Source of the DNA: an uncultured Aminicenantes bacterium
GTDB lineage: Bacteria; Acidobacteriota; Aminicenantia; UBA2199
Direction of reading: 5' to 3'
Length of the DNA stretch: 20,335 nucleotides
NCBI GenBank assembly: GCA_965195285.1
Contig: CBDAFS010000052.1
Location: forward strand, 1 to 20,335
Shown piece by piece: positions 1-12,082 of this stretch; position 1 is the stretch's first letter, and the number at the start of each line of letters is the position of its first letter. The notes under the pieces were generated by a model. The model saw only the letters and a program-made list of their open reading frames with translations. It was not told the DNA's origin and did not search any database. The position numbers were made by a program, and so were the translations under genes.

Positions 1-264
1 TGGTCTTTCAATCCAAATTTTACCCGCATCATTTAAATTTGACAAATAATATATTATGGCCGTATGACCATCTCTTGCCATCTCCTGACTTCGTTGAATA
101 GACCATTCCACGGGTGGATTATCCAAGTCCGTCCCCTTTGCTGACCATCCTTCCATGTCATGTTCGAAAGAAAATAAATAATCGCCTTGCCATGGCGGAT
201 TGTTAACACATCCACCAAATAAGAATAGCAAACCAATTAATGGATATAATAAAAAGTGTCTCAT
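1..264 (-). CDS. Putative lipoprotein, cassette gene, 3' end outside the window (absent from ORF track)
   Basis: Manual translation from ATG at 264: MRHFLLYPLIGLLFLFGGCVNNPPWQGDYLFSFEHDMEGW...GKIWIERP, open for 88 codons to the edge. Hydrophobic signal ending in a lipobox-like FGGC; AAGGA upstream. Confidence 0.8.
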   Translation of the reverse strand, partial: MRHFLLYPLIGLLFLFGGCVNNPPWQGDYLFSFEHDMEGWSAKGTDLDNPPVEWSIQRSQEMARDGHTAIIYYLSNLNDAGKIWIERP

Positions 265-296
265 TACCACATTTCCTTATCCTCGCCCACTATGGC

Positions 297-391
297 AAAT
301 AACGATTCCAGCATATACGACGTTGCGACCGTAGGGAGCAATGTCCCGAAGGGCAAGGGCGTAAGCCCGCAGCTTATATGCTGAGTTATCT
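297..391 (-). repeat. attC-like site 1 (95 bp, GC-rich mini-hairpin type)
   Basis: AAATAAC (297-303) ... GTTATCT (385-391); arms CAGCATATA (309-317) / TATATGCTG (375-383); the stop codon of gene 386-997 overlaps the core. Confidence 0.85.
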
Positions 392-997
392 GCTGTTGAC
401 AATAGGTTTTTTACATAAATAAGCATGAAAAATATTAAGAATTATTTTCGATTCTTCAATAATGTCAAAGCCCGCTGCTCTCAACTCTTCTGCGAACTGA
501 GGCCAATCAAATCTCGATTCTTTAGGATGAGAAAAACGCAAGTACTTTTCCGCAAAATCCACGCCGCTCCTATTCACCTCTTCTATCAACAAAACTCCTT
601 TAGGCATTAATACTCGATATATTTCTCGAAGTGCTTTTCTCCATTCGGGAATATGGTGTAAGATACCAAACACAAAGACAGCATCATATTTATCTGAAGG
701 TGAATCTATTTCTGTAACATCGCCAACAAAAAATCTTGCTTTCTTATATCTTTTCTTAGCAAGTTCTATCTGTTCTGGCATTATATCGAAGGCTGTTAGT
801 TCTCTTGGGTTATATCTGGATCCTATTAGCTTTGTGCTGTATCCTGAACCACATCCAGCGTCAAGGATAGCACTACCGGTTAAATTTAGGTTATGCTTTT
901 CCAAAAACCTATTTAAAAGCCGAAATTCGATTCTTTTCTGAATCCACCTTCTGATAGGATTGTTCATTGAAATGAACTCAACCCGACTCAATCTCAT
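386..997 (-). CDS. Class I SAM-dependent methyltransferase (cassette)
   Basis: Motif I ILDAGCGSG, YDAVF, LHHI, EIYRVLMPKG; Shine-Dalgarno AAGGAG. Confidence 0.92.
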   Translation of the reverse strand: MRLSRVEFISMNNPIRRWIQKRIEFRLLNRFLEKHNLNLTGSAILDAGCGSGYSTKLIGSRYNPRELTAFDIMPEQIELAKKRYKKARFFVGDVTEIDSPSDKYDAVFVFGILHHIPEWRKALREIYRVLMPKGVLLIEEVNRSGVDFAEKYLRFSHPKESRFDWPQFAEELRAAGFDIIEESKIILNIFHAYLCKKPIVNSR

Positions 998-1024
998 TAA
1001 AAAATCTCCTTATACACCAATGAC

Positions 1025-1109
1025 AGCTAACAGTTGGCGTGTTTGCGAAGTGCGAGGCTTTGCCGAGCATTTTGGTGAGCGATAGCGAACCGCATACCCG
1101 CTGTTAGAC
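1025..1109 (-). repeat. attC-like site 2 (85 bp, family B)
   Basis: AGCTAAC ... GTTAGAC; arms GCGTGTTTGCG (1037-1047) / CGCATACCCGC (1091-1101); homologous to the site at 3231-3306. Confidence 0.85.
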
Positions 1110-1163
1110 GACCCGTTAGGGCAAAATTGCGTAGCAATTTTGAGTGCCGAAGCCCGCAAGAAA

Positions 1164-1751
1164 TTATTCATGATATTCATTGGGACTCTTCTGAAATATT
1201 ATGCTGAATCTTCGTCCAATTATGTTAATATTTGGTTTCTTTTCATAGATAATCTTAAAGTTATTTCTTCTCATATAATTAACAATGTCATCTTTTGGGA
1301 GACTCCATTTTTTAAAGAATTTAAACTCTGGAAACGCAAGATCATTTAAAACATAGAAACCATTTGGTCTTAAAACTCGACTTATTTCGTTTAATACTTT
1401 ATCCCAATCAGAGACTATGTGATGCAGAGCATCAGAGGATAAAATTAAATCATATTCGTTATCTTCGAATGGAAGTTTTGTAGCGTCTGCTTCAAGAAAT
1501 TTTAGATACTTTTTTTCTTTATGCTCTTTTTTTGCTCTCGCTATTTGTTCAGGATCTAAATCAATTCCTGTTACTTCCCATCCATATTTCTCAGCCAAAT
1601 ATGAAGAGAGCACTCCAATGCCGCATCCAACTTCTAACACTTGTTTAACATTGCTTAAATCAATTTGACTAAATAAATGTTCAAAAGTCTTTATATTACG
1701 AGTGTGTGCACTGGGATTTACAAATATTTTTTCAAGTTTGGACATCTTCAT
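1164..1751 (-). CDS. Class I SAM-dependent methyltransferase (cassette)
   Basis: VLEVGCGIG, DATKLPFEDNEYDLI, LHHI, EISRVLRPNG; Shine-Dalgarno AGGAGG. Confidence 0.92.
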   Translation of the reverse strand: MKMSKLEKIFVNPSAHTRNIKTFEHLFSQIDLSNVKQVLEVGCGIGVLSSYLAEKYGWEVTGIDLDPEQIARAKKEHKEKKYLKFLEADATKLPFEDNEYDLILSSDALHHIVSDWDKVLNEISRVLRPNGFYVLNDLAFPEFKFFKKWSLPKDDIVNYMRRNNFKIIYEKKPNINIIGRRFSIIFQKSPNEYHE

Positions 1752-1827
1752 TTTGAAAACCTCCTAATATTGATAATATTCTTATCTTTAATAAATTTAC
1801 TTTTTTTAAAGCGGGCATTGGCATTTC

Positions 1828-1957
1828 GTCTAACGGTGAGTGTAAGAATAGTAGCCGATTGCGGTGCAACTTCCTATCAAACCGTTACAAATTTGAAGCG
1901 GGCTACAAACGCCCAAAAACCTACTATAGCGGCTATTATTTTTACACATTGTTGTAG
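1828..1957 (-). repeat. attC-like site 3 (130 bp, family A)
   Basis: GTCTAAC ... GTTGTAG; arms GTGTAAGAATAGTAGCCG / CGGCTATTATTTTTACAC; homologous to 3871-4000, 5411-5540 and 8983-9112. Confidence 0.88.
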
Positions 1958-1961
1958 CCAG

Positions 1962-3212
1962 TTATTCCACTATTGACTTATACAATTCTTCTCTAAAATC
2001 TTCTTTTTCCATCTGGCTTGCTACTTGCTCCGCTTTACTCTTAAAGTAACTATTGTTTACCAATTCAAGAATTTTCGGTTCAAGGTTCTTCGTGGTAATT
2101 TTACCTATTTTAATCCCTTTTGGTCCGACACCCAAATTATAAATAATTCTATCCCATACAAATTGGTCAATAATATGTGGGATAATCATTGTTGCACATC
2201 CATATTTAAGTGTCAAATGGGTTGTACCAGAACCTCCATGATGGATTACGCCATAGATTTTTGGAAAAATCCAGTCGTATGGAATTTGAGAAACAAAATG
2301 TATTAGCTCAGAGTCAAATTTATCCAGTTGGACAAGACCTCCTGATGCTGTATTAATTATTGTATGAATTTTATTTCGTTCAAGTATATCAATAATTATT
2401 TTAGTCTTTTCTTCTGGTTCTGGATTTAACATACTACCAAAAGTGATGAATATGATTTTACTGTGTTTCTCTATAAAATCTGTTAATTTTTTGTCTGGTT
2501 GCCAGTTGACAGTTTTGTTCCTTTCGTAGTATCCCAATACTTTAAGATTCTCGTTCCAGTAATCCGGTCGTGAAAAAAGTGAGGGGGAAATTGTATAAAT
2601 TGCCTTATTCGACAAAAGAGCATTCTTTATCTGTTTTCGGGTTATTTTTCTTGTGATTTTCAACCATTTTTTTGAAATCATTACTGTCATGATAATCCCA
2701 AAATTCGCTAACGAAAAGGTTAGTTTATTTAAAAAAGGACCAAAATTGCTGTTAAAAACAACATGCGTATTATCTCTCACATAATGCAAATAAGGGCAAG
2801 CACATACAAGAATATTTTTTCCTCTGTTATTTAATCCCCAAATTATCGGGTAATTTACTTTCCCATTGTATACAATTCTATCGGGAATTTCGCTTTCAAT
2901 TATATCGTATTGCTTATCAGTTAGCTCTTTATTAGCTTCTGTCTGATTTTTAGCAAGTTTTACATAAGCAATAAATTTCTTTAATCCTGAGGCACTTCCT
3001 CCCATAGCTGCTTTTCCAACCTTACTGTTCAGCATCTCAATATATTTTGTACCCAAAGAGGCAAATTCCATATTTGAATCCTCCACAAGATTTCTAAATT
3101 GTTCAGGAAAAGCACAGATTACTTGATGTCCCTTTTCTTTCAATATTTCTCCAATTGCTAAAAAAGGTTCCATATCTCCACGAGTTCCAATTGATATTAA
3201 AATTATCTTCAT
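1962..3212 (-). CDS. GT-B fold family 1 glycosyltransferase (sterol glucosyltransferase / Glyco_transf_28-like) (cassette)
   Basis: N-terminal GTRGDMEPF, FITFGSM, and C-terminal nucleotide-sugar motif IHHGGSGTT...IIPHIIDQFVW. Confidence 0.92.
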   Translation of the reverse strand: MKIILISIGTRGDMEPFLAIGEILKEKGHQVICAFPEQFRNLVEDSNMEFASLGTKYIEMLNSKVGKAAMGGSASGLKKFIAYVKLAKNQTEANKELTDKQYDIIESEIPDRIVYNGKVNYPIIWGLNNRGKNILVCACPYLHYVRDNTHVVFNSNFGPFLNKLTFSLANFGIIMTVMISKKWLKITRKITRKQIKNALLSNKAIYTISPSLFSRPDYWNENLKVLGYYERNKTVNWQPDKKLTDFIEKHSKIIFITFGSMLNPEPEEKTKIIIDILERNKIHTIINTASGGLVQLDKFDSELIHFVSQIPYDWIFPKIYGVIHHGGSGTTHLTLKYGCATMIIPHIIDQFVWDRIIYNLGVGPKGIKIGKITTKNLEPKILELVNNSYFKSKAEQVASQMEKEDFREELYKSIVE

Positions 3213-3230
3213 CTGCGTTTTTCTAATTGG

Positions 3231-3306
3231 CTACAACGTTCTGCGTGTTTGCGAAGTGCTGCAGGCATTTCGTTGAGCGAAGCGAACCGCAAACACGCTG
3301 TTAGAT
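3231..3306 (-). repeat. attC-like site 4 (76 bp, family B)
   Basis: CTACAAC ... GTTAGAT; perfect arms GCGTGTTTGCG (3243-3253) / CGCAAACACGC (3288-3298). Confidence 0.88.
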
Positions 3307-3325
3307 GAAGTTGCTGTCATTACAC

Positions 3326-3841
3326 TCATAGAAGCTCCGGGTTTATAAATAAATCTATCCAAGGCGGTTTGTAGGTAAACCAGACATATAGAAAAGTTGA
3401 GACGATAAATAAAATAAGAATGACGATTTTAAAACTTGGAGTAACTGCACTCTCCTCAATATTCTTTTCCATTATTCCGCCCATAACTCCGGAAAAATAG
3501 GTACTAAAGATACCCCATAGTAATTCTAATACCAAAGATTCGATTCTTCCAAAGAAAGCAGGCACTAAATACCAAATAAGCACAACAAACCAAGGTACTA
3601 TTATTGTAGATAGTAACCTGGGATACCAAAAGGTTTCTCTCTTACTGAATTTTCTTCTCATTACAAAGTATTCAATCAAGCTGGCCAAAAGATAGGCCCA
3701 AAATGCCATTTTTAAATGTTGAAACACCGATTCGTTAATCCCGCAGAGTGGTGTAAGAAAAGCCCAATGAGTTAAATCATACCCAAAATGCAATATGGAA
3801 AAAACCACCAAATAAAGCAAGGATTTAATATATATGTTCAT
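3326..3841 (-). CDS. Integral membrane protein, DUF6512-like (cassette)
   Basis: About 5 hydrophobic segments; LHFGY...INESVFQHLKMAFW motif recalled from this family; strong Shine-Dalgarno AAGGAGGTG. Confidence 0.75.
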   Translation of the reverse strand: MNIYIKSLLYLVVFSILHFGYDLTHWAFLTPLCGINESVFQHLKMAFWAYLLASLIEYFVMRRKFSKRETFWYPRLLSTIIVPWFVVLIWYLVPAFFGRIESLVLELLWGIFSTYFSGVMGGIMEKNIEESAVTPSFKIVILILFIVSTFLYVWFTYKPPWIDLFINPELL

Positions 3842-3870
3842 CTTTTCACCTCCTTTGTGTCAGCAATTTC

Positions 3871-4000
3871 ATCTAACGGATGGCAATATGGCATGAAGCG
3901 GATTGAGAGTGATTCGCTATCAAACCGAGATGAAGTTGAAACGGGCTACAAGCCTTAATATCACTACTATATCGCCTATTTTTTATATACATTGTTGTGC
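3871..4000 (-). repeat. attC-like site 5 (130 bp, family A, left arm diverged)
   Basis: ATCTAAC ... GTTGTGC; shares TCAAACCG, GTTGAAACGGGCTACAA, ACTACTAT and TATACATTGTTG with other family A copies. Confidence 0.8.
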
Positions 4001-4012
4001 ATTCGTGCATTA

Positions 4013-4495
4013 TTATTTCATTTCTAACTCATTTACAAATCTTACAATTGCCTCAAAGTCAATCTCGGATATACTTTCCATAGAACCTGAAATTTTCTTC
4101 ACAAGAGCTCTTTCAAAAAAGTTCATTTTATCTAAATTATATTCATAACCTAATAGTGCAGTACTAGATGCATGTTTGCGAAGATCTTCAGAAAAAGCAT
4201 TCTCAAATTGCTCAATAGACTTTTCACCTTGCTCCATGCAACAAAGAAACAATCCCAATGTTTTTGTCAAAAGAATGCTTTTGTTAAACTCACAGAGTTT
4301 TTTTGTTTTTTTATGTACAGAAGCCATATGAATTGAGCCCCCAATTATTATCCTGTCAAAAGTCTCAATATCCTTAATCTTGTCTTTGCTTAGATTTATC
4401 AATTCAGTTTCATTTGGATTGAGCTTATCAGCAATTATCCTTGCTACTTTCTCAGTAGTTCCATGTTTAGATATGTAAATGATTCCTGTTTTCAT
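4013..4495 (-). CDS. Flavodoxin-domain protein (Flavodoxin_5 / HemG-like) (cassette)
   Basis: FMN-binding loop IIYISKHGTTEKVA, IIIGGSIH, LGLFLCC. Start placed at MKTGIIY (4495) because the ORF-track start at 4516 lies inside the collapsed attC. Confidence 0.85.
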   Translation of the reverse strand: MKTGIIYISKHGTTEKVARIIADKLNPNETELINLSKDKIKDIETFDRIIIGGSIHMASVHKKTKKLCEFNKSILLTKTLGLFLCCMEQGEKSIEQFENAFSEDLRKHASSTALLGYEYNLDKMNFFERALVKKISGSMESISEIDFEAIVRFVNELEMK

Positions 4496-4503
4496 TTCTT
4501 TCT

Positions 4504-4532
4504 GCATGATGTGCATTGTTGTGCGTTCGTGC
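4504..4532 (-). repeat. Collapsed attC remnant (cassette fusion scar)
   Basis: GCATGATG (4504-4511, identical to 5404-5411) nearly abuts CATTGTTGTGCGTTCGTGC (4514-4532, 18/19 identical to 3990-4008); the attC body is absent. Confidence 0.75.
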
Positions 4533-4533
4533 T

Positions 4534-5328
4534 TTAATTCATTGTATTATATTCTATATTTGATATTTTTCCTTTAATGTATTCAAAATCACCACCCTCA
4601 CTATGCCATATAGCTTTTATCTCACTTGGGAACTTTACACCATTTTTTTCAATATAATCATCCACCACAATCGACCATGGTATTTTTTTATATGTTCCAT
4701 CTTTTTCTGCATAATATCTGTCTTCTGTATAAAAGCTAATCATCTCTCCTATATCGTTAAAATTAAAAGTCCCACTTACCTTTATGTCATTATATGTTAA
4801 TGTTGCTTTAGCATTATTATCATCAACAGCTTCCCATTTTATATAATCTTGTAATGCGTAGGTTGAAATAATAAATGTCTCTGATAAAACCGTTACTAAT
4901 GCAGACTTGTCCATTTCCACACCTTTTGCATCGGCTACGGTAAATAATTTTAAGAGTTTAATAAGCATATTGCCTTTTCCGTTTTGGCATTTATCACGAG
5001 CTTCAAAAGGGAAAATTCCTAAAATGTTATTTTTCATATAAACAATTCTCGTTGGTTCAGAAACCGAATTATATTGATAACAGTTCAGTCGCATCCATTT
5101 GTTATCTGGTGCTCTTTTAAAAAAAACGTTTTCAAATTCGATTTTTGCATTAATCATTTTTACTTTGCCAATATAACCGCAATATCTAAAATATCTTTGA
5201 ACAGGTTTTGGCAAAGTCGCAATATCTTTTTCTTTTATGGTTTTTGTTGGAAAGTTAGAATACTTTTCAATATCAGTTTTAATTTCTGATAAATAAACAT
5301 TTTTCAGTGAACTACAGCTTGTCATCAT
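4534..5328 (-). CDS. DUF6544/DUF6920-like protein; a probable lipoprotein signal peptide is frameshifted upstream
   Basis: DIATLPKPVQRYFRYCG and WEAVDDNNAKAT motifs. The upstream ATG at 5372 is out of frame by one base at an A8 tract. Confidence 0.75.
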   Translation of the reverse strand: MMTSCSSLKNVYLSEIKTDIEKYSNFPTKTIKEKDIATLPKPVQRYFRYCGYIGKVKMINAKIEFENVFFKRAPDNKWMRLNCYQYNSVSEPTRIVYMKNNILGIFPFEARDKCQNGKGNMLIKLLKLFTVADAKGVEMDKSALVTVLSETFIISTYALQDYIKWEAVDDNNAKATLTYNDIKVSGTFNFNDIGEMISFYTEDRYYAEKDGTYKKIPWSIVVDDYIEKNGVKFPSEIKAIWHSEGGDFEYIKGKISNIEYNTMN

Positions 5329-5410
5329 AAGTGCTCCTATTATTATACTGATATTAATTATTTTTTTTCCATAATAAACTCAAATTATTCAGGTGATTCT
5401 CTGGCATGAT

Positions 5411-5540
5411 GCACAACGGTAAGTATAAGAATAGTAGCCGATTGCGGACTTCACTCCTGTCAAGTTACATGAAAGTTGAAGCGGGCTACAACCCTTGAAT
5501 TTACTACTGAACCGGCTATTATTTTTATACATTGTTGGCA
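5411..5540 (-). repeat. attC-like site 6 (130 bp, family A)
   Basis: GCACAAC ... GTTGGCA; 18 bp arms 5423-5440 / 5513-5530, with two G:T wobbles on the + strand. Confidence 0.9.
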
Positions 5541-5634
5541 TTTCGTTGTTTTAATGTAAACTAAAAATCAAATTCAAATTTTACATATAACCATTTTTTT
5601 ATGTTTAGATTTAAAAATGCAATGTTACTAAATT

Positions 5635-8043
5635 TTATTTATTTAAAAACATATCTACTCCGTCTATAGTTTGAAATGCTTTGGGCACATTATTGAATGT
5701 TTCAATTTTTATTATATTATCATATAAAGGATACTTCATATCAAGTTTAAACCCATTATCAGTAGTTTCTATTCTTCTGCAAGTAATTACATTACTGCTT
5801 TTACTTTCATGTTTTAAATAAACCATTGATAATTCATCAATATCACTCCAATCTAACATTGAAAATAAAAAAGGGATAAACTCTTTTGGGTAAACCGGTT
5901 CAGCGATATGATATTGATTATTTTTGAATTGTATCGTTTTGTTTTCTATATTTTGACTAAAAATTGTATCATTTTTAACAATATAACGAACGGGTGATAA
6001 TTTATCTGATAATTCTAAGATAGATATAGAATTACCGCTTTTTATATTTACACTCACCCCTTTATTCCTTTTAGAAAACCAAACTTGCATTGTTTTTTCA
6101 TTATCTTTTGATATATAATTTAATGTATCTGTAGGGATTTGATAATTGCAACGTTCATGAGTAAATGTTTTCTTGTGGTCTTTAATAATGGCAAAAAGTC
6201 GTGAATCAGGGTCATATTCAATGCTAATTGTTTTTGCTTCTATTGGTATTGTAAATTCCGATACTTTATCTTCAATATCTAAGGTTTTTCTGAAATTTTC
6301 GTTTTCAGTTTTAATATCTATTTCCAAAGGAAATATAAAAATGGGATCTTCCTGCCTTACTATAATTTTCAGCAAACTATTATTTCCTACAGTTTCTAAT
6401 TGCGTTTGTACATCTAAAACAGGATTTTCTTTTCTTTGAAGCCATTGTTCTTTAAAGAATTTTAAATCCTGCCCTGAAACATTTTCAAAAATTTTCATAT
6501 AATCATCAACGTTTGACAAGTTTGTACCATTCATTTCTCCTAATTTGAATAATGCTTTCTTGAAATTTTTTGTTCCGATTATTGTTTCGAGTACTCTATA
6601 AACCCATGCACCTTTTGAGTATGCAGACCAATATGTCGGAATACCGGTTGAAGTTATTTTTTCTAAAGGCTCTTCGTACAAATCAAAACAATGTAAGTAC
6701 TTTCTTTTTTGATTTTTCCAAAGGTCAGTATCATTTTTATGAGTGTGCAGATATTCAAAAGATAAAAAGTTTGTAAATCCTTCTTTTATCCAAAGAGAGT
6801 TTCCTTCTACTGTGGGTTGTGGTGCACCATGACTTACTTCGTGTAAATAACCCATACCACCGGTTCCGATTATTTCTGCATTTTGAGCTATAATAGAATG
6901 ACTGTCATTTAACAATCCACCTTTTACAAAATTATCTAATACAACAAAGTTGATACTAAATTTGCCAAAATTATTAAATTTCGTATTTATCCAATTTAAC
7001 AGTTGGTTTACTTCTGATATTATATAATCTTGCTCTTTTTTATCCTTTTTATTAAAGTAAAACCCTATATACGTATCACCTTTAATGATTTCTTTCTTCT
7101 CCCAATCGTTTTGTGCATAAAATGCAATATTATCCATCCAAGTGCCGCTAATGGAAGCCTTAAGTTTCTTTATTCCGTTGTTTGTCGTATCATTAATTAT
7201 ATTCCCATATTGCAAAAGTGTGTATGTTTCAGGATATTCATAATCGATTGTAAATTTTGTGCTGTCTTTAGAGAAAAAATTACGCCCTTCATTATTTGGC
7301 GGTGGAGATGGGATTGCCGCAAAGCCACCAAACCGAATAAAGAAATTATTATTACCCATACTGATAAATTGATTATTGGTATTAGGTGCTTTTAAGTTTC
7401 CCACTATTTTCAGGTGATATATGCCGGTAGAATTTGTTTTGTAATAAACTATATATCCAAACCTGTCGTAGGTGATATCTTTTCCATTCAATTGAAAACT
7501 CTTAATATTAAAGTTTTTTGCAAGTTTAAAAATTAGGTGTGGTGTCTTTAAGTTTATAGAAACTTCACTCTCAAAAGTATAAGTTTTGGTTATTGGGTCA
7601 ACATTTACATCTAAATCATAAGTTAAAAAATCGGGGTTTATTTCGTTCATATATCGTTTAGTAATCAGAAATTTACCTGAAATATTTTCAATTTTATAAA
7701 TACGATAAATAAAATCGAAATATTCATCATGATTATCACCATCGTAAGCATTATTATTAGTTGGGATATACATTAAAACACTAACCGCGTCTAATCTAAA
7801 AACTTTTGCTTTTGAAAAGTTTAAATGATTTCTTTTTAATTGATATTTCCAGCTTTCTATTTCTTCTTTAGCAAAATCTTCTTGAAAAAATTCTTTTATT
7901 AATTCAATATCGGACGTTTTTAGTGTTTCTTGGAAGTTTTGTTCCCATAAAACAGAAGTTGATTGTGCCAAACATAAAAAAGAAAAGCTTAATAAAAATA
8001 AAATAATGGCAACTTTCCGGATTCTATTCATAAAATAATTCAT
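5635..8043 (-). CDS. Secreted M1-family zinc aminopeptidase (cassette)
   Basis: Signal peptide; gluzincin motif YLHEVSH followed by WIKEGFTNF; catalytic Tyr in AYSKGAWV; IEYDPDSRL. Confidence 0.88.
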   Translation of the reverse strand: MNYFMNRIRKVAIILFLLSFSFLCLAQSTSVLWEQNFQETLKTSDIELIKEFFQEDFAKEEIESWKYQLKRNHLNFSKAKVFRLDAVSVLMYIPTNNNAYDGDNHDEYFDFIYRIYKIENISGKFLITKRYMNEINPDFLTYDLDVNVDPITKTYTFESEVSINLKTPHLIFKLAKNFNIKSFQLNGKDITYDRFGYIVYYKTNSTGIYHLKIVGNLKAPNTNNQFISMGNNNFFIRFGGFAAIPSPPPNNEGRNFFSKDSTKFTIDYEYPETYTLLQYGNIINDTTNNGIKKLKASISGTWMDNIAFYAQNDWEKKEIIKGDTYIGFYFNKKDKKEQDYIISEVNQLLNWINTKFNNFGKFSINFVVLDNFVKGGLLNDSHSIIAQNAEIIGTGGMGYLHEVSHGAPQPTVEGNSLWIKEGFTNFLSFEYLHTHKNDTDLWKNQKRKYLHCFDLYEEPLEKITSTGIPTYWSAYSKGAWVYRVLETIIGTKNFKKALFKLGEMNGTNLSNVDDYMKIFENVSGQDLKFFKEQWLQRKENPVLDVQTQLETVGNNSLLKIIVRQEDPIFIFPLEIDIKTENENFRKTLDIEDKVSEFTIPIEAKTISIEYDPDSRLFAIIKDHKKTFTHERCNYQIPTDTLNYISKDNEKTMQVWFSKRNKGVSVNIKSGNSISILELSDKLSPVRYIVKNDTIFSQNIENKTIQFKNNQYHIAEPVYPKEFIPFLFSMLDWSDIDELSMVYLKHESKSSNVITCRRIETTDNGFKLDMKYPLYDNIIKIETFNNVPKAFQTIDGVDMFLNK

Positions 8044-8108
8044 TGCTTAAATCTCCTCATTTGATTTATAAAATTATTTAGTAATTTTATTATTCTTTTG
8101 ACAATGAA

Positions 8109-8239
8109 TGCCAACGATTGCAATATGAAATGTTGGGCGTTTTAAAACACAAGTCCTTCAATTTACTACACCGTTTATTTATTGCTAATTTGTTCATATT
8201 TACCACTTTCTGCCCAATTTTTTATATTGCGTGTTGTAC
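8109..8239 (-). repeat. attC-like site 7 (131 bp, divergent family A-like)
   Basis: TGCCAAC ... GTTGTAC; arms GCAATATGAAATGTTGGGC / GCCCAATTTTTTATATTGC. Confidence 0.82.
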
Positions 8240-8247
8240 ACCGTACT

Positions 8248-8922
8248 TTATCTTCCATTGCTAATTTGATGAAATCTTCGGGCAATCATAAATAACCATA
8301 TTGAAGTTGGTATTAATGATGTCAAAGCAAATATCATCCCTATCATTCCAACTGTTGATGGAACCAACATTAATATACCAGATATAAGTCCAATGTATGC
8401 AATCTTTTTACTAAATACTTTATTTGTAATCATCGCTACTGAAAATAATATTAATGAAAGTCCATTCAAGATATAATAGACACCAAATGCAGTCCCTTTG
8501 TATAGGGTAAGCATAACTTTTCCCGTAGTCAATAAAATTGTTTTCTGTTCATTCGACTCTGCCAACAGGAATTGATTACTTATAGACATCATTTCAAAAG
8601 ACACATTAGAAATGAAATAAACAGCTACTCCAATCAAGCCAAGAGTTAACGCAATCGTTGCAATTGACTTATGTGTATTTGATAATACTGCAAAAAATGC
8701 AAGATATAAATATCCCATAAACAAAACGGTCAACAAATAAAGAATGTCAAGATTTAACAATCCAATTATTGCATTGTCTTGAAAGACCAAATAGAAATCC
8801 AAAACCTCAGTTGGTGGTGACCATAACATAAAAATTACAATCTGAACAGGAATTAATCCCAATGTAATCCACGCAATAATCCCCGATGATTTATATAATA
8901 TATTCCAATTATTTGTTTCCAT
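8248..8922 (-). CDS. Polytopic membrane protein, DUF4386-like (cassette)
   Basis: About 6 hydrophobic helices; family call from overall resemblance only. Confidence 0.65.
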   Translation of the reverse strand: METNNWNILYKSSGIIAWITLGLIPVQIVIFMLWSPPTEVLDFYLVFQDNAIIGLLNLDILYLLTVLFMGYLYLAFFAVLSNTHKSIATIALTLGLIGVAVYFISNVSFEMMSISNQFLLAESNEQKTILLTTGKVMLTLYKGTAFGVYYILNGLSLILFSVAMITNKVFSKKIAYIGLISGILMLVPSTVGMIGMIFALTSLIPTSIWLFMIARRFHQISNGR

Positions 8923-8982
8923 TTTATTCTAATTTTTTATCGTTTTTAAGTTAAATTTCTATCTATCGTTCATTCGTATGGT

Positions 8983-9112
8983 GTACAACGTTAAGTATAA
9001 GAATAGTAGCCGACTGCGGTGCAATTCACTTTCAATTTACGACAAAGTTGATACGGGCTAAAACCCTTGAATTTACTACTGTCTCGGCTATTATTTTTAT
9101 ACATTGTTGTGC
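8983..9112 (-). repeat. attC-like site 8 (130 bp, family A)
   Basis: GTACAAC ... GTTGTGC; arms GTATAAGAATAGTAGCCGA / TCGGCTATTATTTTTATAC. Confidence 0.9.
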
Positions 9113-9118
9113 GGTCGT

Positions 9119-10318
9119 TCATTGTTTAATTCCATCTACATACTTAATTGTTTTCTCAATTTTCCCATCTTTTGTCCAATAAGACCAGACATCATTTTTT
9201 AATCTATTTTTAAAATGTCCTTCTACCTTTATGTTACCACTTTCATAATATTCTAAATATCTACCATCAATAATTTCAGGATTTAAGCTTGAATAATATG
9301 CTATCCCCTGTAAAGTATCATTCACGAAATAATCTTTCATTATATAATGCTTAGAGGTCGTGTCTTTTTCTATTCTTCTATAATATTTTGCTTTATTTTC
9401 CCTTGTTGTAAGCTTCCAATGTTTATCAAGTAATATTTTTTCAGCATTTTCTGATAGATATTTATCATCATGTATCTCAATGTTCTTTCTATTTTTTATT
9501 GTTGATTGAACAAGATCAGATAAGAAGTATGAATGTTTCCCTTTTTCTAATTCTTTTTGTAGGTTGATTTGAGTAATTTGAGAAAAATCACCATTAATAC
9601 TTATAAAAATATCCCCTGAATTTAAATCGGAAACTGTTGAGTATATTGTTCTTGCAAAAATATTGTTTTGATGAGTAGCATTGAGAATTGAAAAGAAATT
9701 TTCAACAGTTAAGTCCTGTTTTTTTAATTGCTTTGTTGTTTTCTTATATCTTCCGCTACCAATGTTGTACCAATGAAAGTTTTCCATATCTTCTTTACAT
9801 GAAATTCTGAAGTTTGTACAAACTTGATATTTGTTTGTATTTCTAGTAACTGTTAATTTATTGTTGTGATAGGTAATTATTGCACTTTCTCCAGTTTTAT
9901 CGACAACCATAAGTTGTGCTAGTCGAAATCCTTCCCAATAATATTTTTTAAAAAGACCTATAACATCATCAACGGTGGCACATTCTTCTGAAATTTTATA
10001 AAGAACATTACCTCCAATATCGAATCTATTATTATCGTTATTAATTTCAGTATATGGATATGCTCTTAAACCATCCCAGAATAATCCTTTTTCATTAATA
10101 CCTGCTTGAACCGAGCCATTATAACCAAACATAGCATATCCATATCGGTCATTTTGGGCAGGAATAAACCAAACCTGTGAATTTCTTTTTTTATAATCTT
10201 CATTGCTTCCAACTAAAGTCCTTTTGCCATTTGTGCTCATAAAAACTGTACACCCGTATAATTGGATGCTTGTTTGCCAAAGAAGCAGTAAAAATAATAT
10301 TGATATAGTTCTTTTCAT
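9119..10318 (-). CDS. Secreted Ntn-hydrolase (linear amide C-N hydrolase / C45-C59-like) with C-terminal MORN-variant (YwqK-like) repeats; first cassette of the array
   Basis: Signal peptide then nucleophile Cys in CTVF, GSNED, GINEKGL, TNF, TIYSTV; C-terminal DGRYLEYYESGNIKVEGHFKN...WSYWTKDGK. Confidence 0.82.
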   Translation of the reverse strand: MKRTISILFLLLLWQTSIQLYGCTVFMSTNGKRTLVGSNEDYKKRNSQVWFIPAQNDRYGYAMFGYNGSVQAGINEKGLFWDGLRAYPYTEINNDNNRFDIGGNVLYKISEECATVDDVIGLFKKYYWEGFRLAQLMVVDKTGESAIITYHNNKLTVTRNTNKYQVCTNFRISCKEDMENFHWYNIGSGRYKKTTKQLKKQDLTVENFFSILNATHQNNIFARTIYSTVSDLNSGDIFISINGDFSQITQINLQKELEKGKHSYFLSDLVQSTIKNRKNIEIHDDKYLSENAEKILLDKHWKLTTRENKAKYYRRIEKDTTSKHYIMKDYFVNDTLQGIAYYSSLNPEIIDGRYLEYYESGNIKVEGHFKNRLKNDVWSYWTKDGKIEKTIKYVDGIKQ

Positions 10319-10347
10319 TTTTATAATTCTCCATTTTTCAGAATGCC

Positions 10348-10445
10348 GCCTAACGTATGTGTATGTCTACAAGTAGACATATTTTTCCTATATCCTTCTG
10401 AAAAGGTAGATATATACACTTAAAATTGGAAGTATATATCTACCT
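10348..10445 (-). other. Array head: attI-like junction with tandem palindromes
   Basis: Core GCCTAAC (10348-10354; GTTAGGC on the minus strand) has no partner GTT closing an attC. It is followed by TATGTCTAC-AA-GTAGACATA (10362-10381) and AGGTAGATATATAC-N14-GTATATATCTACCT (10404-10445). Confidence 0.55.
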
Positions 10446-10556
10446 ATTTTTATTTTGATCTAAAAAATATTATTCTTACAGATAAACCAATTTTATTCAT
10501 TTCTAATATCCAAATTATTTAAAAGACTTTAATTTTCTCCATTCCTCTTTTCGTAA

Positions 10557-10585
10557 AATATAATTCAATAAATAAGCAATGTCAA
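10557..10585 (-). promoter_or_regulatory. Putative sigma70 promoter driving the cassette array (Pc-like)
   Basis: Minus strand TTGACA (10585-10580) - 17 nt - TATATT (10562-10557), pointing into the array. Confidence 0.65.
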
Positions 10586-10772
10586 GATTTTTTGTGCACT
10601 GGCTGGCCTCATTCGCCACCTATTTACTGACAGATTAAATTAAAGAAACCTTTTCCAATTTAAAAAGATTAAAAACATCACCAGGGGGAACAGAAATATA
10701 GTTGGACAATTCAAAAATTAAATATTATATTTGTCAACTTCTTATCTTATTTTATGATACTTCTTATAAAAC

Positions 10773-10801
10773 TTGACCAAATCGATGTTTTAAAATAGAA
10801 T
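10773..10801 (+). promoter_or_regulatory. Putative sigma70 promoter of the cinA operon
   Basis: TTGACC (10773-10778) - 17 nt - TAGAAT (10796-10801). Confidence 0.6.
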
Positions 10802-10837
10802 GATCTCAGATTAACGATCCGTGTTCAGGAAAAAAAC

Positions 10838-12082
10838 ATGAGAGCCATATTTATTGCAGTGGGAAGTGAATTACTGGAACTGGACCGCATGGATACCAAT
10901 TCTCTCTATGTATCAAGAAAATTGAGAGAAAAGGGTATTTTAATGGACATGAAGATAACGGTCGGAGACAACCTTGAAAATTTATCCTGGACAATCAAGA
11001 ATGCCTGCAAACGTGCGCAACTGGTAATCATTACCGGTGGTCTCGGACCTACTGAAGATGATATCACCCGGGAAGGAGTTGCCAGTGCTTTAAAAAAGCA
11101 ATTAACCTTTAAGGAAGAAATTGTCAGTAAAATCAGAGCTGTTTTCCAAAAAAGAGGAATTAAAATGCCCGACATCAATACCCGTCAGGCATTTGTTATT
11201 GAAGGGGCTGAGGTACTTCCCAATTCAGTGGGAACCGCACCGGGGCAATACCTTGATGAAAAGGATTGTAAAATTTTATTACTTCCGGGTCCACCCAGAG
11301 AAATGCAGCCCATGTTTGAGGATATCTTCGCCAGGAAAATCGCACCCTTGTCCAATTTTCTCATTGCCAGTAGAAGTTTGAAATTTGCCGGAATTACCGA
11401 ATCTGAAACCGACTCCATGATTGCGGACCTGTATACGAAATATAAAAATCCCCATACAACCATTCTGGCTTCTCCAGGATTCATTGAAATTCATTTACTG
11501 GGAAGATCTAAAAAATCTTCGGAAGAAAACAAAGCAATCACCGATCAACTGGCTGAAAAAATAAAAGCAAGGCTGGCTGATTATTTTATCACTGAAAAAG
11601 ATATCACCTTTGAAGAACACATAATTCAATTATTATACACAAGAAACCTAACGTTAAGCATCGCAGAAAGTTGCACAGGTGGTGGTCTGGGAAACCGGAT
11701 TACCAATGTGCCGGGCAGTTCTGAAGTTTTTTTAGGTGGCGTAATCGCTTACTCCAATGAGTTGAAAATAAAAATTCTGGGGGTCAAAAAGGGAACCCTG
11801 GAAAAAAAAGGAACCGTGTCCAAACAAACAGCCCTGGAAATGGCCACCGGAATACGACGTTTGTGTCAATCTGATATCGGGATAGCCATTACCGGAATTG
11901 CAGGTCCCGGAGGCGCCACTCAGGGTAAGCCGGTGGGGCTGGTTTGCCTGCATTTAAGCAGTGAAGAAACCGAGCAGGGAGTTCAAAAAATCTTTTCAGG
12001 TGACCGTCAGATTGTAAAAATTCGAAGTGAAAATTATTGTTTAAACCTGATCAGACAATATCTTCATCATCATCAGAATTGA
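10838..12082 (+). CDS. cinA: Competence/damage-inducible protein CinA (MoCF-like domain + PncC NMN deamidase domain)
   Basis: IAVGSELL, DTNS, ITGGLGPTEDDITRE, LPGPPREM, AESCTGG, AITGIAGPGG...KPVGLV. Confidence 0.96.
   Translation: MRAIFIAVGSELLELDRMDTNSLYVSRKLREKGILMDMKITVGDNLENLSWTIKNACKRAQLVIITGGLGPTEDDITREGVASALKKQLTFKEEIVSKIRAVFQKRGIKMPDINTRQAFVIEGAEVLPNSVGTAPGQYLDEKDCKILLLPGPPREMQPMFEDIFARKIAPLSNFLIASRSLKFAGITESETDSMIADLYTKYKNPHTTILASPGFIEIHLLGRSKKSSEENKAITDQLAEKIKARLADYFITEKDITFEEHIIQLLYTRNLTLSIAESCTGGGLGNRITNVPGSSEVFLGGVIAYSNELKIKILGVKKGTLEKKGTVSKQTALEMATGIRRLCQSDIGIAITGIAGPGGATQGKPVGLVCLHLSSEETEQGVQKIFSGDRQIVKIRSENYCLNLIRQYLHHHQN

Follow-up and report, generated by a model that had tools for sequence, protein, structure and literature searches.

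What are the inverted repeats that bound the gene cassettes of this locus, and what does the wobble that recurs within them signify? The window analysed here is a stretch of 20,335 nt from an uncultured Aminicenantes bacterium, half of which is occupied by a gene-cassette array. A sequence-only reading had proposed that each cassette carries its own terminal inverted repeat with a fixed T:G at position 11, possibly an extra recognition determinant.

Layout of the cassette array

The array lies at one end of the window, truncated by the contig start (position 1) on its distal side only, its leader end being 10354. All ten ORFs are on the minus strand, and the cassettes are mostly single-gene and co-oriented, with an attC-like site after the gene; the stop codons are either within the right arm or 1-22 nt away from it. 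Pfam content comprises two methyltransferases, a glycosyltransferase, DUF6512, flavodoxin and DUF6544, as well as an M1-peptidase-like protein, DUF4386 and a CBAH/MORN protein. CinA is encoded at 10838-12082. The eight attC-like sites have an AAC-to-GTT spacing of 63-118 nt, fold as hairpins and are palindromic as classical attC sites are. Five of the eight (110-148 bits) have an R1-type interior (~117 nt, with a long uninterrupted L stem), whereas the three short sites share their arms with R1-type sites but not the interior.

1..10354, minus strand: cassette array, at least nine cassettes with all ORFs on this strand (from the ORF list and Pfam)
290..303, plus strand: left arm (start) of the contig-truncated cassette, reading AT-N7-AAC
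297..391, plus strand: attC a, from 7-bp core to 7-bp core, the plus strand read as bottom strand
1025..1109, plus strand: attC b, short class
1828..1957, plus strand: attC c, long class (model R1, 131 bits)
3231..3306, plus strand: attC d, short class
3871..4000, plus strand: attC e, long class, 5' half degenerate
4504..4532, plus strand: relic junction, left-arm-like 4504-4515, TT, right-arm-like 4518-4532, with the attC interior absent
5411..5540, plus strand: attC f, long class
8109..8239, plus strand: attC g, long class, divergent
8983..9112, plus strand: attC h, long class
10355..10548, plus strand: conserved array leader, attI-like or a decayed attC (from homology to another genus)

We read the relic junction as two cassettes merged through loss of the hairpin between them.

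The two ends of one cassette pair with each other

All eight end pairs proposed from the sequence were recovered at their coordinates:

385..398, plus strand: right arm of the cassette with ORF 386-997, pairing weakly with 1018-1031; G395 faces T1021
1103-1111 + 1143-1157, plus strand: right arm of the cassette with ORF 1164-1751, pairing with 1811-1834
1951..1964, plus strand: right arm pairing with 3224-3237 (13/14); T3227:G1961
3300..3319, plus strand: right arm pairing with 3858-3877 (18/20); T3867:G3310
3994..4008, plus strand: right arm of a two-ORF cassette, pairing with 5404-5417 with one bulged T; T5407:G4005
5534..5549, plus strand: right arm pairing with 8101-8115 with one bulged T; T8105:G5545
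8233..8246, plus strand: right arm pairing with 8976-8989 (13/14); T8979:G8243
9106..9120, plus strand: right arm pairing with 10341-10354 with a bulge; T10344:G9117

We scored each right arm (from GTT) against each left arm (to AAC). The mean score was 23.6 for arms of the same cassette against 10.5 for arms that face each other in the array and 10.2 for the other 56 combinations, showing that the pairing joins the two ends of one cassette rather than those of an in-array attC. The own partner ranked first among nine in six cassettes and second in the other two, and when end pairings were shuffled, the observed total was reached in 2 of 100,000 random assignments. Quality varies among the pairs: the first (10 Watson-Crick and 2 G:T of 14 positions) scores no better with its own than with its in-array partner (16 vs 17), the second is interrupted by a 31-nt insertion (1112-1142) that forms hairpins of its own, and the eighth has two mismatches within the 7-bp core.

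Counted from the C of AAC, all nine left arms have T at position 11 (293, 1021, 1824, 3227, 3867, 5407, 8105, 8979 and 10344) and A at position 12, i.e., every cassette start reads AT-N7-AAC, as had been claimed; the same two letters stand at positions 12-11 in 14.4% of the 320 AAC triplets in the window. This T faces a G in all eight complete cassettes (395, 1143, 1961, 3310, 4005, 5545, 8243 and 9117), and three right arms (those starting at 3994, 5534 and 9106) have an extra base immediately before it.

Crossover point and predicted folding

Homology between the leader and another genus begins exactly at AAC (88.5% over 200 nt, 10352-10548 vs locus L012, 7983-8180). Contigs assembled from four sequencing runs, three of them from one study, show 8116 joined to 10350, with joints at 10350/10352, and 3878 joined to 10555 via 973 different letters. 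What differs is whole leader-proximal cassettes, and the breakpoints fall on the AAC(G) of left arms g and e. Together with the excess of own-end over in-array pairing, the start of the leader homology and the contig joints point, indirectly, to a crossover between AA and C (AA/C hereafter).

Inverted repeats of 14-24 bp that flank single genes also recall the termini of transposon-like or MITE-like elements, which would be unrelated to attC recombination. We regard this as very improbable, because the repeats begin exactly at the AAC and GTT of hairpin sites, the units abut without spacer and lack target-site duplications, whole units distinguish the array variants, whose breakpoints fall at AAC, and the arrays adjoin a tyrosine recombinase, with no transposase.

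The outer stem belongs to the cassette and not to the in-array attC, so that only excision as a circle allows it to close around the attC. When the cassettes were circularised and folded in silico, the circular form was the more stable in all eight, by 0.4 to 16.2 kcal/mol, and the predicted mean paired probability of the AAC:GTT core rose from 0.39 in the array form to 0.89 in the circle. Within the circular form, the bottom strand comes out in prediction as ~2.5 kcal/mol more stable than the top. The suggestion that the stem gives the free cassette an advantage over its copy in the array is in line with this folding, at the level of thermodynamic prediction.

Conservation beyond the window

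In classical attC sites, the crossover lies at AA/C of the bottom strand and the site carried by a cassette is that of its circle, and the own-end principle is already in print for the 7-bp core, as laid out in ACID 2009 and Loot 2017. Consistent with this, 11 class 1 resistance cassettes show own-end pairing of 7-17 bp (permutation, 0 of 100,000) with no fixed wobble. Own-end pairing in itself is therefore general, expected from an AA/C crossover and implied by the literature, and since class 1 cassettes extend it without a fixed wobble, the wobble is not needed for IntI1-type recombination. What sets the attC class of the window apart is the fixed length of its stem, 14-15 bp, and the invariant wobble.

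Model R1 matches 12 of 72 genomes of family relatives, the window's own included. In these relatives, position 11 is T in 36 of 40 left arms, and the right arm has G at position 11 in 28 of 37 cases and at position 12 in 8 more. In 9 of 14 cases, the downstream stretch that paired best with a right arm was the next model match. Among pairs defined by adjacency only, 15 of 22 extend to at least 12 bp, all 15 with T:G at position 11, and extended pairing is absent from the remaining 7; an undetected intervening site or duplicated units explain some of these and not others. The same stem design occurs in the arrays of four complete chromosomes, where 14 of 21 adjacent pairs carry T:G at position 11.

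Beyond the family, we recovered 81 distinct sites at 80 loci, spread over many phyla; the taxa named in the matched records include Bacteroidota, Ignavibacteriota, Marinimicrobia and others. Scored on its own downstream DNA, the true right arm came first of 65 in 22 of 65 cases, where about one would be expected, and it was among the best three in 33. In a profile drawn from 51 own pairs, 48 of the 49 that reach position 11 have T:G there, and positions 4-9 and 13-14 show each of the four pair types and hardly any mismatch; 29 of the 51 were chosen by score, which inflates the pairing at positions 4-9 and 12-14, whereas the T:G count is not inflated because a wobble scores below a Watson-Crick pair. 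Most stems end at 14-15. Positions 4-9 and 13-14 thus covary, as had been noted for the intervening bases in the window, and we found a compensatory change between two homologous cassettes (88% identity over 452 nt), in which a G:C at position 5 of one corresponds to T:A in the other.

Chance, or the base composition of AT-rich intergenic DNA, would account at most for the weak first pair. The tests run refute it, leaving it a negligible probability: the permutations in the window and in class 1 cassettes, the recurrence of AT at positions 12-11 of all nine cassette starts against its background, and the ranking of true right arms all stand against it.

A further reading holds that the outer stem is a historical footprint only, i.e., that cassettes were born as a long perfect palindrome or through a single copying step yielding both arms and that the stem is an unselected remnant split by insertion. 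Own-end pairing indeed requires no present function once the crossover is at AA/C, and its length varies in class 1 cassettes. However, an unselected remnant is expected to decay, while positions 4-9 and 13-14 are nearly free of mismatches and most of the 51 stems stop at the same length; position 11 is T:G in nearly all of those that reach it and never Watson-Crick, in agreement with the adjacency-defined pairs, and copying would have yielded C:G or T:A there. The idea of a footprint of how cassettes are made, which had been offered as one option, thus fits poorly with the covariation and the compensatory change, and we consider it unlikely.

Which strand is folded and exchanged

The polarity of the sites deserves separate consideration. 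When sites c, f, g and h are folded, every base from the L stem to the R-box core is paired in the plus-strand 3' arm, and the unpaired bases, two of them or four in the short class, sit in the 5' arm. The window sites lack the classical signature, in which the R''-L'' arm of a bottom strand carries extrahelical bases. Because the extra bases sit on the arm where the classical rule does not expect them, polarity rests on other arguments. One may ask whether folding and exchange instead involve the coding (minus) strand, with attC upstream of the gene and the wobble marking the unused strand. In favour of this reversal, the extra bases fall on the 3' arm of the minus strand, where classical bottom strands (aadA1) have extrahelical bases, and a cassette homologue at locus L019 has an attC on its start side only.

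Against it, 1) the G:T pairs make the plus strand the stabler hairpin in prediction, and bottom strands are enriched in G:T pairs, which favour that strand (Nivina 2016); 2) AAC followed by G, as on the plus strand of the window, is a bottom-strand signature found in 11 of 11 class 1 sites; 3) the array recombinase lies, with the leader, at the gene-upstream end of the arrays; and 4) strain variation is concentrated at the leader end, as expected if classically oriented cassettes enter there. Loss of an attC interior is seen within the window itself (4504-4532). Reversed polarity is, in our view, quite unlikely.

The recombinase associated with R1-type arrays

No recombinase is encoded in the window, and none of the 62 contigs of its genome exceeds the cut-off of TIGR02249. 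A matching Xer-like (NF040815-type) recombinase is absent from the genome as assembled (94.9% complete), in which the best homologues are Xer-like genes at 33-34% identity and, on a different contig, a fragment of 67 aa. In this genome, the array may therefore be inert.

In all four chromosomes examined, R1-type arrays directly adjoin a recombinase of 368-386 aa. The two of these four array recombinases that were scanned against NCBIfam score 237 and 224 bits with NF040815 (cut-off 220), against 212 and 196 with TIGR02249 (cut-off 265), and the enzyme is also close to the XerC/XerD models in score. It shares 31% identity with IntI1, with gaps opposite about IntI1 196-250, i.e., it is Xer-like and without the integron-integrase insertion, and it has an N-terminal extension of ~100 residues. 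TIGR02249 exceeds its cut-off in 1 of 15 other genomes with the R1 site class, away from the arrays. The R1-type attC class goes with a Xer-like recombinase, not with the classical integron integrase.

Relation to known systems

Like classical integrons (IntI1; Vibrio VCR/VchIntIA), the window has imperfect palindromes bounded by RYYYAAC and GTTRRRY and promoterless single-gene cassettes in one array orientation. In contrast to them, its sites lack the extra L'' base, which is present in aadA1 and in an attC of a complete integron from the same family, and have 2-4 extra bases in the 5' spacer; the stem is 14-15 bp with T:G at 11 rather than variable in length and unmarked; and the enzyme adjoining the arrays is no integron integrase, has no IntI insertion and is encoded in the same direction as the cassette ORFs.

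As attC-like sites without a nearby integrase, the window array resembles CALINs, which have been widely reported (IntegronFinder 2.0), including in phages, one of them a Polaribacter phage (Qi et al. 2023). CALINs are read as decayed integrons, whereas an intact Xer-like recombinase adjoins the same site class in four of four complete chromosomes. The available text of IntegronFinder 2.0 and Qi et al. 2023 makes no mention of an outer stem, a wobble or a Xer-like enzyme, and we found in the literature neither a published description of a wobble-marked outer stem nor a published name for cassette arrays with Xer-like recombinases.

With the Xer systems (XerC/D-dif, archaeal XerA), the array enzyme shares a score above the cut-off of NF040815, 'site-specific tyrosine recombinase/integron integrase', and differs by its N-terminal extension. 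Xer sites are double-stranded, unique and conserved in sequence; array sites, unlike them, recur tens of times, bound mobile genes and fold as hairpins whose arms covary.

A wobble-marked outer stem as a probable part of the recombination site

Taken together, the 'terminal inverted repeats' are probably the outermost helix of each cassette's own recombination site. In this class of attC-like sites, the R box is a defined stem of 14-15 bp rather than 7 bp, consisting of AAC/GTT, six covarying Watson-Crick pairs, position 10, which is irregular (paired, T:T-mismatched or with an additional base on the right arm), the invariant T:G at 11, A:T at 12 and two or three further covarying pairs. Strand exchange would occur at AA/C, and because of this the sequence outward of the C would move with the neighbouring cassette once integrated. 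The in-array attC would then be a chimera with mismatched halves of the outer helix, the matching halves meeting only in the excised circle. What the data establish is the anatomy of the stem with its statistics, its conservation across phyla, the cassette breakpoints at AAC and the tie of this site class to a Xer-like tyrosine recombinase.

The binding arm of a tyrosine recombinase usually extends ~11-13 bp outward of the cut. The stem may offer the R-box recombinase monomer a complete duplex arm, ~13 bp from the cut outward, such as other tyrosine recombinases have. It would also turn the free cassette's folded bottom strand into a better substrate than its counterpart in the array. The wobble, read as a C-A mismatch on the opposite strand, could together with the adjacent irregularity mark strand and register in sites without extrahelical bases. 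We infer a role for the stem in stabilising and marking the free cassette's bottom-strand hairpin. The structural part of the sequence-only reading is upheld; that own-end pairing is a plain consequence of the AA/C crossover had not been stated there, and the link to a Xer-like recombinase in place of a classical integron integrase was beyond its reach.

This array design marks a widespread, little-studied relative of the integron gene-capture system. It is possible, though short of probable, that a Xer-like recombinase without the IntI insertion runs a widespread integron-like capture in which a full R arm is used, the T:G replaces the extrahelical bases and directionality follows. If true, a T:G wobble one helical turn from the cut would be read on folded single-stranded sites, and the free cassette would be the preferred substrate because its arm is complete only in the excised circle; one structural mark would then give both directionality, i.e., capture over loss, and strand choice.

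Organization of the array

Features were assigned from ORF calls and Pfam matches, as listed here.

1-10354, ORFs on the minus strand: gene-cassette array
Minus strand: ten cassette ORFs (two methyltransferases, glycosyltransferase, DUF6512, flavodoxin, DUF6544, M1-peptidase-like, DUF4386, CBAH/MORN)
Plus strand: eight hairpin sites between the ORFs (attC a-h, 5' to 3'), bounded by ...AAC and GTT...

The window lies at the start of contig CBDAFS010000052.1 (C52), and the array therefore runs off the assembly on the left. To the right of its end at 10354, 484 nt without an ORF are followed by a CinA gene, not an integrase. A profile search of the contigs found no integron integrase above the TIGR02249 cut-off in the window's genome, the best match being a 67-aa C-terminal fragment on another contig. 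This fragment shares 50% identity with the C-terminal end of the recombinase that adjoins such arrays elsewhere (see below) and sits in a second array of the same genome (contig C60, ~31500-35900, locus L028), whose attC-like sites are different, shorter and GC-rich and whose genes are on the other strand. A further long-class site lies at the start of contig C6 (1-300, locus L027), possibly as a continuation of the array in the window.

The two ends of each cassette pair with one another

We took 30 nt outward of the nine AAC triplets at cassette starts (left arms) and of the eight GTT triplets (right arms), and scored all 72 combinations with the stem anchored at the triplets, from which positions are counted. 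Arms flanking the same gene, which meet in the circular form, had a mean stem score of 23.6, against 10.5 for arms flanking the same attC and 10.2 for the remaining combinations. The own partner ranked first in six of the eight window cassettes and second in the other two, and the observed own-pair sum was reached by 2 of 100,000 random assignments. The proposal of the sequence-only reading, that the long terminal complementarity joins the two ends of one cassette, thus withstood shuffling of the pairs within the window, and in-silico circularisation lowered the folding energy in 8/8 cassettes, by 0.4 to 16.2 kcal/mol. Its details also held: AT-N7-AAC is present in all nine left arms, compared with 14.4% of the window's AAC triplets, a G stands opposite the T in each of the eight complete cassettes, and three right arms carry one extra base ahead of this G. 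In one cassette the G comes after a 31-nt self-folding insertion. Pairing is weak in pair 1, and the core of pair 8 contains two mismatches. To delimit cassettes in practice, one can take the 14 bases that lie upstream of a cassette's own attC core; their reverse complement, with a T facing G at position 11, gives the start of the cassette.

Three places in the array depart from the regular pattern. The 31-nt insertion (1112-1142) folds alone into two small hairpins (-8.8 kcal/mol) and lies between positions 9 and 10, where other arms have the extra base. In attC e (3871-4000) the 5' half no longer matches the 3' half (4 arm-to-arm pairs in a scan, compared with 12-27 elsewhere), despite which the outer stem is intact. 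A left-arm-like segment (4504-4515) and a right-arm-like one (4518-4532), with just TT dividing them, lie between the genes for flavodoxin and DUF6544; these halves still pair with the matching outer arms at 5404-5417 and 3994-4008, with T:G at position 11, and it looks as if the attC interior had been deleted at the hairpin base, fusing two cassettes.

Own-end pairing in class 1 cassettes

With crossover at AA|C, the site belonging to a cassette is the one seen in the circle, as stated in ACID (2009, PMC2674596); Loot et al. (2017, PMC5371416) point out that the four variable bp of R' may differ from R'' within arrays. A stem reaching outward of the triplet must be split on insertion. To assess generality, we measured 11 distinct class 1 cassettes, taken from R100 and five further plasmids. 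Their own ends form 7 to 17 uninterrupted bp (at least 12 in 5/11), the own partner ranks first in seven and second in four, and the observed sum was reached by none of 100,000 permutations. Own-end pairing past the 7-bp core is therefore a general cassette property and not a peculiarity of the window. This suggests that array-form attC clones used in assays may understate the reactivity of free cassettes. Unlike the window's site class, class 1 stems have neither a fixed length nor a fixed wobble.

Own-end pairing is already known for the core and is general, while the fixed length and the wobble are specific to the site class. We found no published description of a fixed-length stem beyond the core, or of a fixed wobble, in the sections covered of Nivina 2016 and 2020, Larouche and Roy 2011, Boucher 2006, Loot 2017, Vorobevskaia 2024, ACID 2009, IntegronFinder 2.0 and Qi 2023.

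The site class in relatives and other phyla

An earlier naive structural scan for AAC...GTT hairpins returned many false positives, and the outer stem at times led it to a wrong triplet; a covariance model built from five long window sites (R1) was used instead. R1 matched six sites in the window's genome and recovered sites in 12 of the 72 genomes of the family, the window's own counted. Among relatives, left arms carry T at position 11 in 36/40 and A at position 12 in 29/40, and right arms carry G at position 11 in 28/37 and at position 12 in 8 more. When right arms were compared with every AAC triplet downstream of them, the next R1 match proved the best partner in 9/14 cases in relatives and 6/8 in the window. 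When pairs were chosen by adjacency only, 15/22 reached at least 12 bp, and all 15 of these have T:G at position 11.

A search with a 23-letter motif from the 3' part of the site gave at least 122 matching stretches in a species-genome collection, and the DNA of 80 loci was taken. Among the matches listed, the titles of these loci are mostly Bacteroidales, Flavobacteriales, Marinilabiliales, Prolixibacteraceae, Ignavibacteriota and Marinimicrobia, along with a few other phyla. The 81 distinct sites among the matches listed have left-arm T at position 11 in 53/69 and right-arm G at position 11 in 60/81; for the 65 listed sites that are followed by 1200 nt or more, the 64 other right arms were outscored by the true one in 22 cases, and it was in the top three in 33. 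One locus (L011, 7308-8733) holds two copies of one site at a distance of 1308 nt; their left arms are identical to each other and mismatched to the right arms, which looks like a tandem duplication by homologous rather than site-specific recombination.

We profiled the stem by position in 51 own pairs, 29 of them picked by score, a choice that favours pairing, not the wobble.

Pairing by position along the outer stem in own-cassette pairs
Positions 4-9: Watson-Crick, all four pair types
Position 10: pair in 37; T:T in 11; extra right-arm base before it in 8, after it in 2 more
Position 11: T:G in 48/49
Position 12: A:T in 41/49
Positions 13-14: Watson-Crick, covarying

The stem ends at position 14-15 in most of the 51 pairs. 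The covariation and the position-11 wobble first read from the window are thus borne out, with all four Watson-Crick types at positions 4-9, covarying pairs at 13-14 and a nearly invariant T:G between them. In a pair of homologous cassettes with 88% identity over 452 nt, position 5 is G:C in one and T:A in the other. Two other readings of the arms were rejected. An outer 'AAT/GTT' pseudo-core acting as a second cleavage site would call for a conserved triplet; none is seen, and position 13 is A:T in only ~55%. A short reading frame running from a left-arm ATG/ATT into attC ends at differing stops, and most arms have ATT.

Strand polarity and the crossover point

Several lines converge on the plus strand as the bottom strand, which is the reading taken here. 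The G:T pairs lie on the plus strand, where the hairpin is more stable (predicted mean for the circular form, -27.1 kcal/mol against -24.6 for the minus strand), in agreement with the bottom-strand G:T excess reported in a section of Nivina et al. (2016, PMC5027507). A G comes directly after AAC, which matches the bottom strand of 11/11 class 1 sites; the genes point away from the leader, the DNA to the right of the array end; homology of the leader to another genus begins at AAC; and contigs of public sequencing runs break at AAC(G), varying at the leader end. Against this reading, the unpaired extra bases are on the plus-strand 5' arm, with none in L'', so that the extra-base arm is reversed relative to both aadA1 and the canonical attC of a complete integron from the same family.

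In another genus, the DNA flanking a different first cassette matches the leader (10352-10548, 200 nt) at 88.5% identity. The leader contains, within 10355-10548, two inverted repeats (~10366-10383 and ~10406-10443), and the genomes diverge after ~200 nt; it loosely resembles a decayed long-class site. One public-run contig joins 8116 to 10350, placing cassette f-g beside the leader with two cassettes absent, and two others are the same left of 3878, then carry 973 other letters and rejoin at 10555. These breakpoints fall at AAC(G) of left arms g and e, and the leader end is where the variation is seen, in keeping with entry of new cassettes there. The evidence consists of assembled contigs, and three of the four runs come from one study.

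Joints 1019->292, 5414->3875, 1864->9044, 3997->10352 and others were set aside for similar attC interiors, 21-35-letter sides or low depth, and joints that go back were rejected as evidence of circles. Runs X2-X17 contain small shares of the stretch, which were uninformative about habitat. In run X20, contig depths over 4038-8074 and 10277-11000 sum to ~30000-70000 on part of the array, with adapter letters at loose ends, which may be a technical feature of that run. A DNA-level search of all collected loci for the same cassette in two arrays, meant to show which attC interior moves with the gene, gave one partial and ambiguous case alone (L009/L019). Here L019 (7290-7990) holds a homologue of one L009 cassette with both arms; its right arm, which has TTT for GTT and an insertion of 2 nt, is not flanked by an attC interior, and the start-side attC has a degenerate GTT end.

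The associated recombinase

No classical IntI above the TIGR02249 cut-off was found in 14 of the 15 genomes with the site class, and the one true IntI (G082) was rejected as the array's partner since the ~20 kb flanking it on each side contain no R1 site. The best partial matches in complete chromosomes are ORFs of 368-386 aa, which we class as a Xer-like recombinase. Two of these were scanned; they passed NF040815 (237 and 224 bits, cut-off 220) and failed TIGR02249 (212 and 196 bits, cut-off 265). In all four chromosomes examined, one-orientation R1 arrays begin within ~1-3 kb of the 3' end of the recombinase gene and extend for more than 10 kb. In 16/17 intervals between neighbouring sites, the longest ORF shares the strand of the recombinase. 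T:G at position 11 occurs in 14/21 adjacent pairs of these arrays, and at one locus (L167, recombinase gene at 2013-3137) the left arm of the first cassette lies ~70 nt from the recombinase stop codon. The recombinase is 31% identical to IntI1, with gaps opposite ~IntI1 196-250, the site of the integron-integrase-specific insertion, which reportedly takes part in binding extrahelical bases in the VchIntIA-VCR structure. The window's genome holds no close homologue of the recombinase.

Proposed mechanism and implications

Tyrosine-recombinase arms usually measure ~13 bp, and the stem outward of the cut would supply a duplex of about this size. In the array form, only the triplet and the conserved positions 11-12 would be able to pair. 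The predicted probability of a formed core is 0.39 in the array and 0.89 in the circle, and hence the free cassette should be the better substrate; such a preference would favour capture and keep the array quiet. The T:G wobble becomes a C-A mismatch on the other strand and lies one helical turn from the cut, adjoining a tolerated irregularity that also takes the 31-nt insertion at 1112-1142. It could serve as a strand and register mark in place of extrahelical bases. We hold the structural part of this account with high confidence; the functional part, which we infer, stands at about even chances.

Integrons are described as very rare in Bacteroidetes in the portion covered of the IntegronFinder 2.0 paper, and the site class together with its recombinase points to a large unannotated reservoir of mobile genes in this group. 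The outer stem would add a second way for a tyrosine recombinase to read a folded single strand, through a wobble-marked long arm and not flipped-out bases, and would explain cassette stores that are stable in the array yet reactive when excised.
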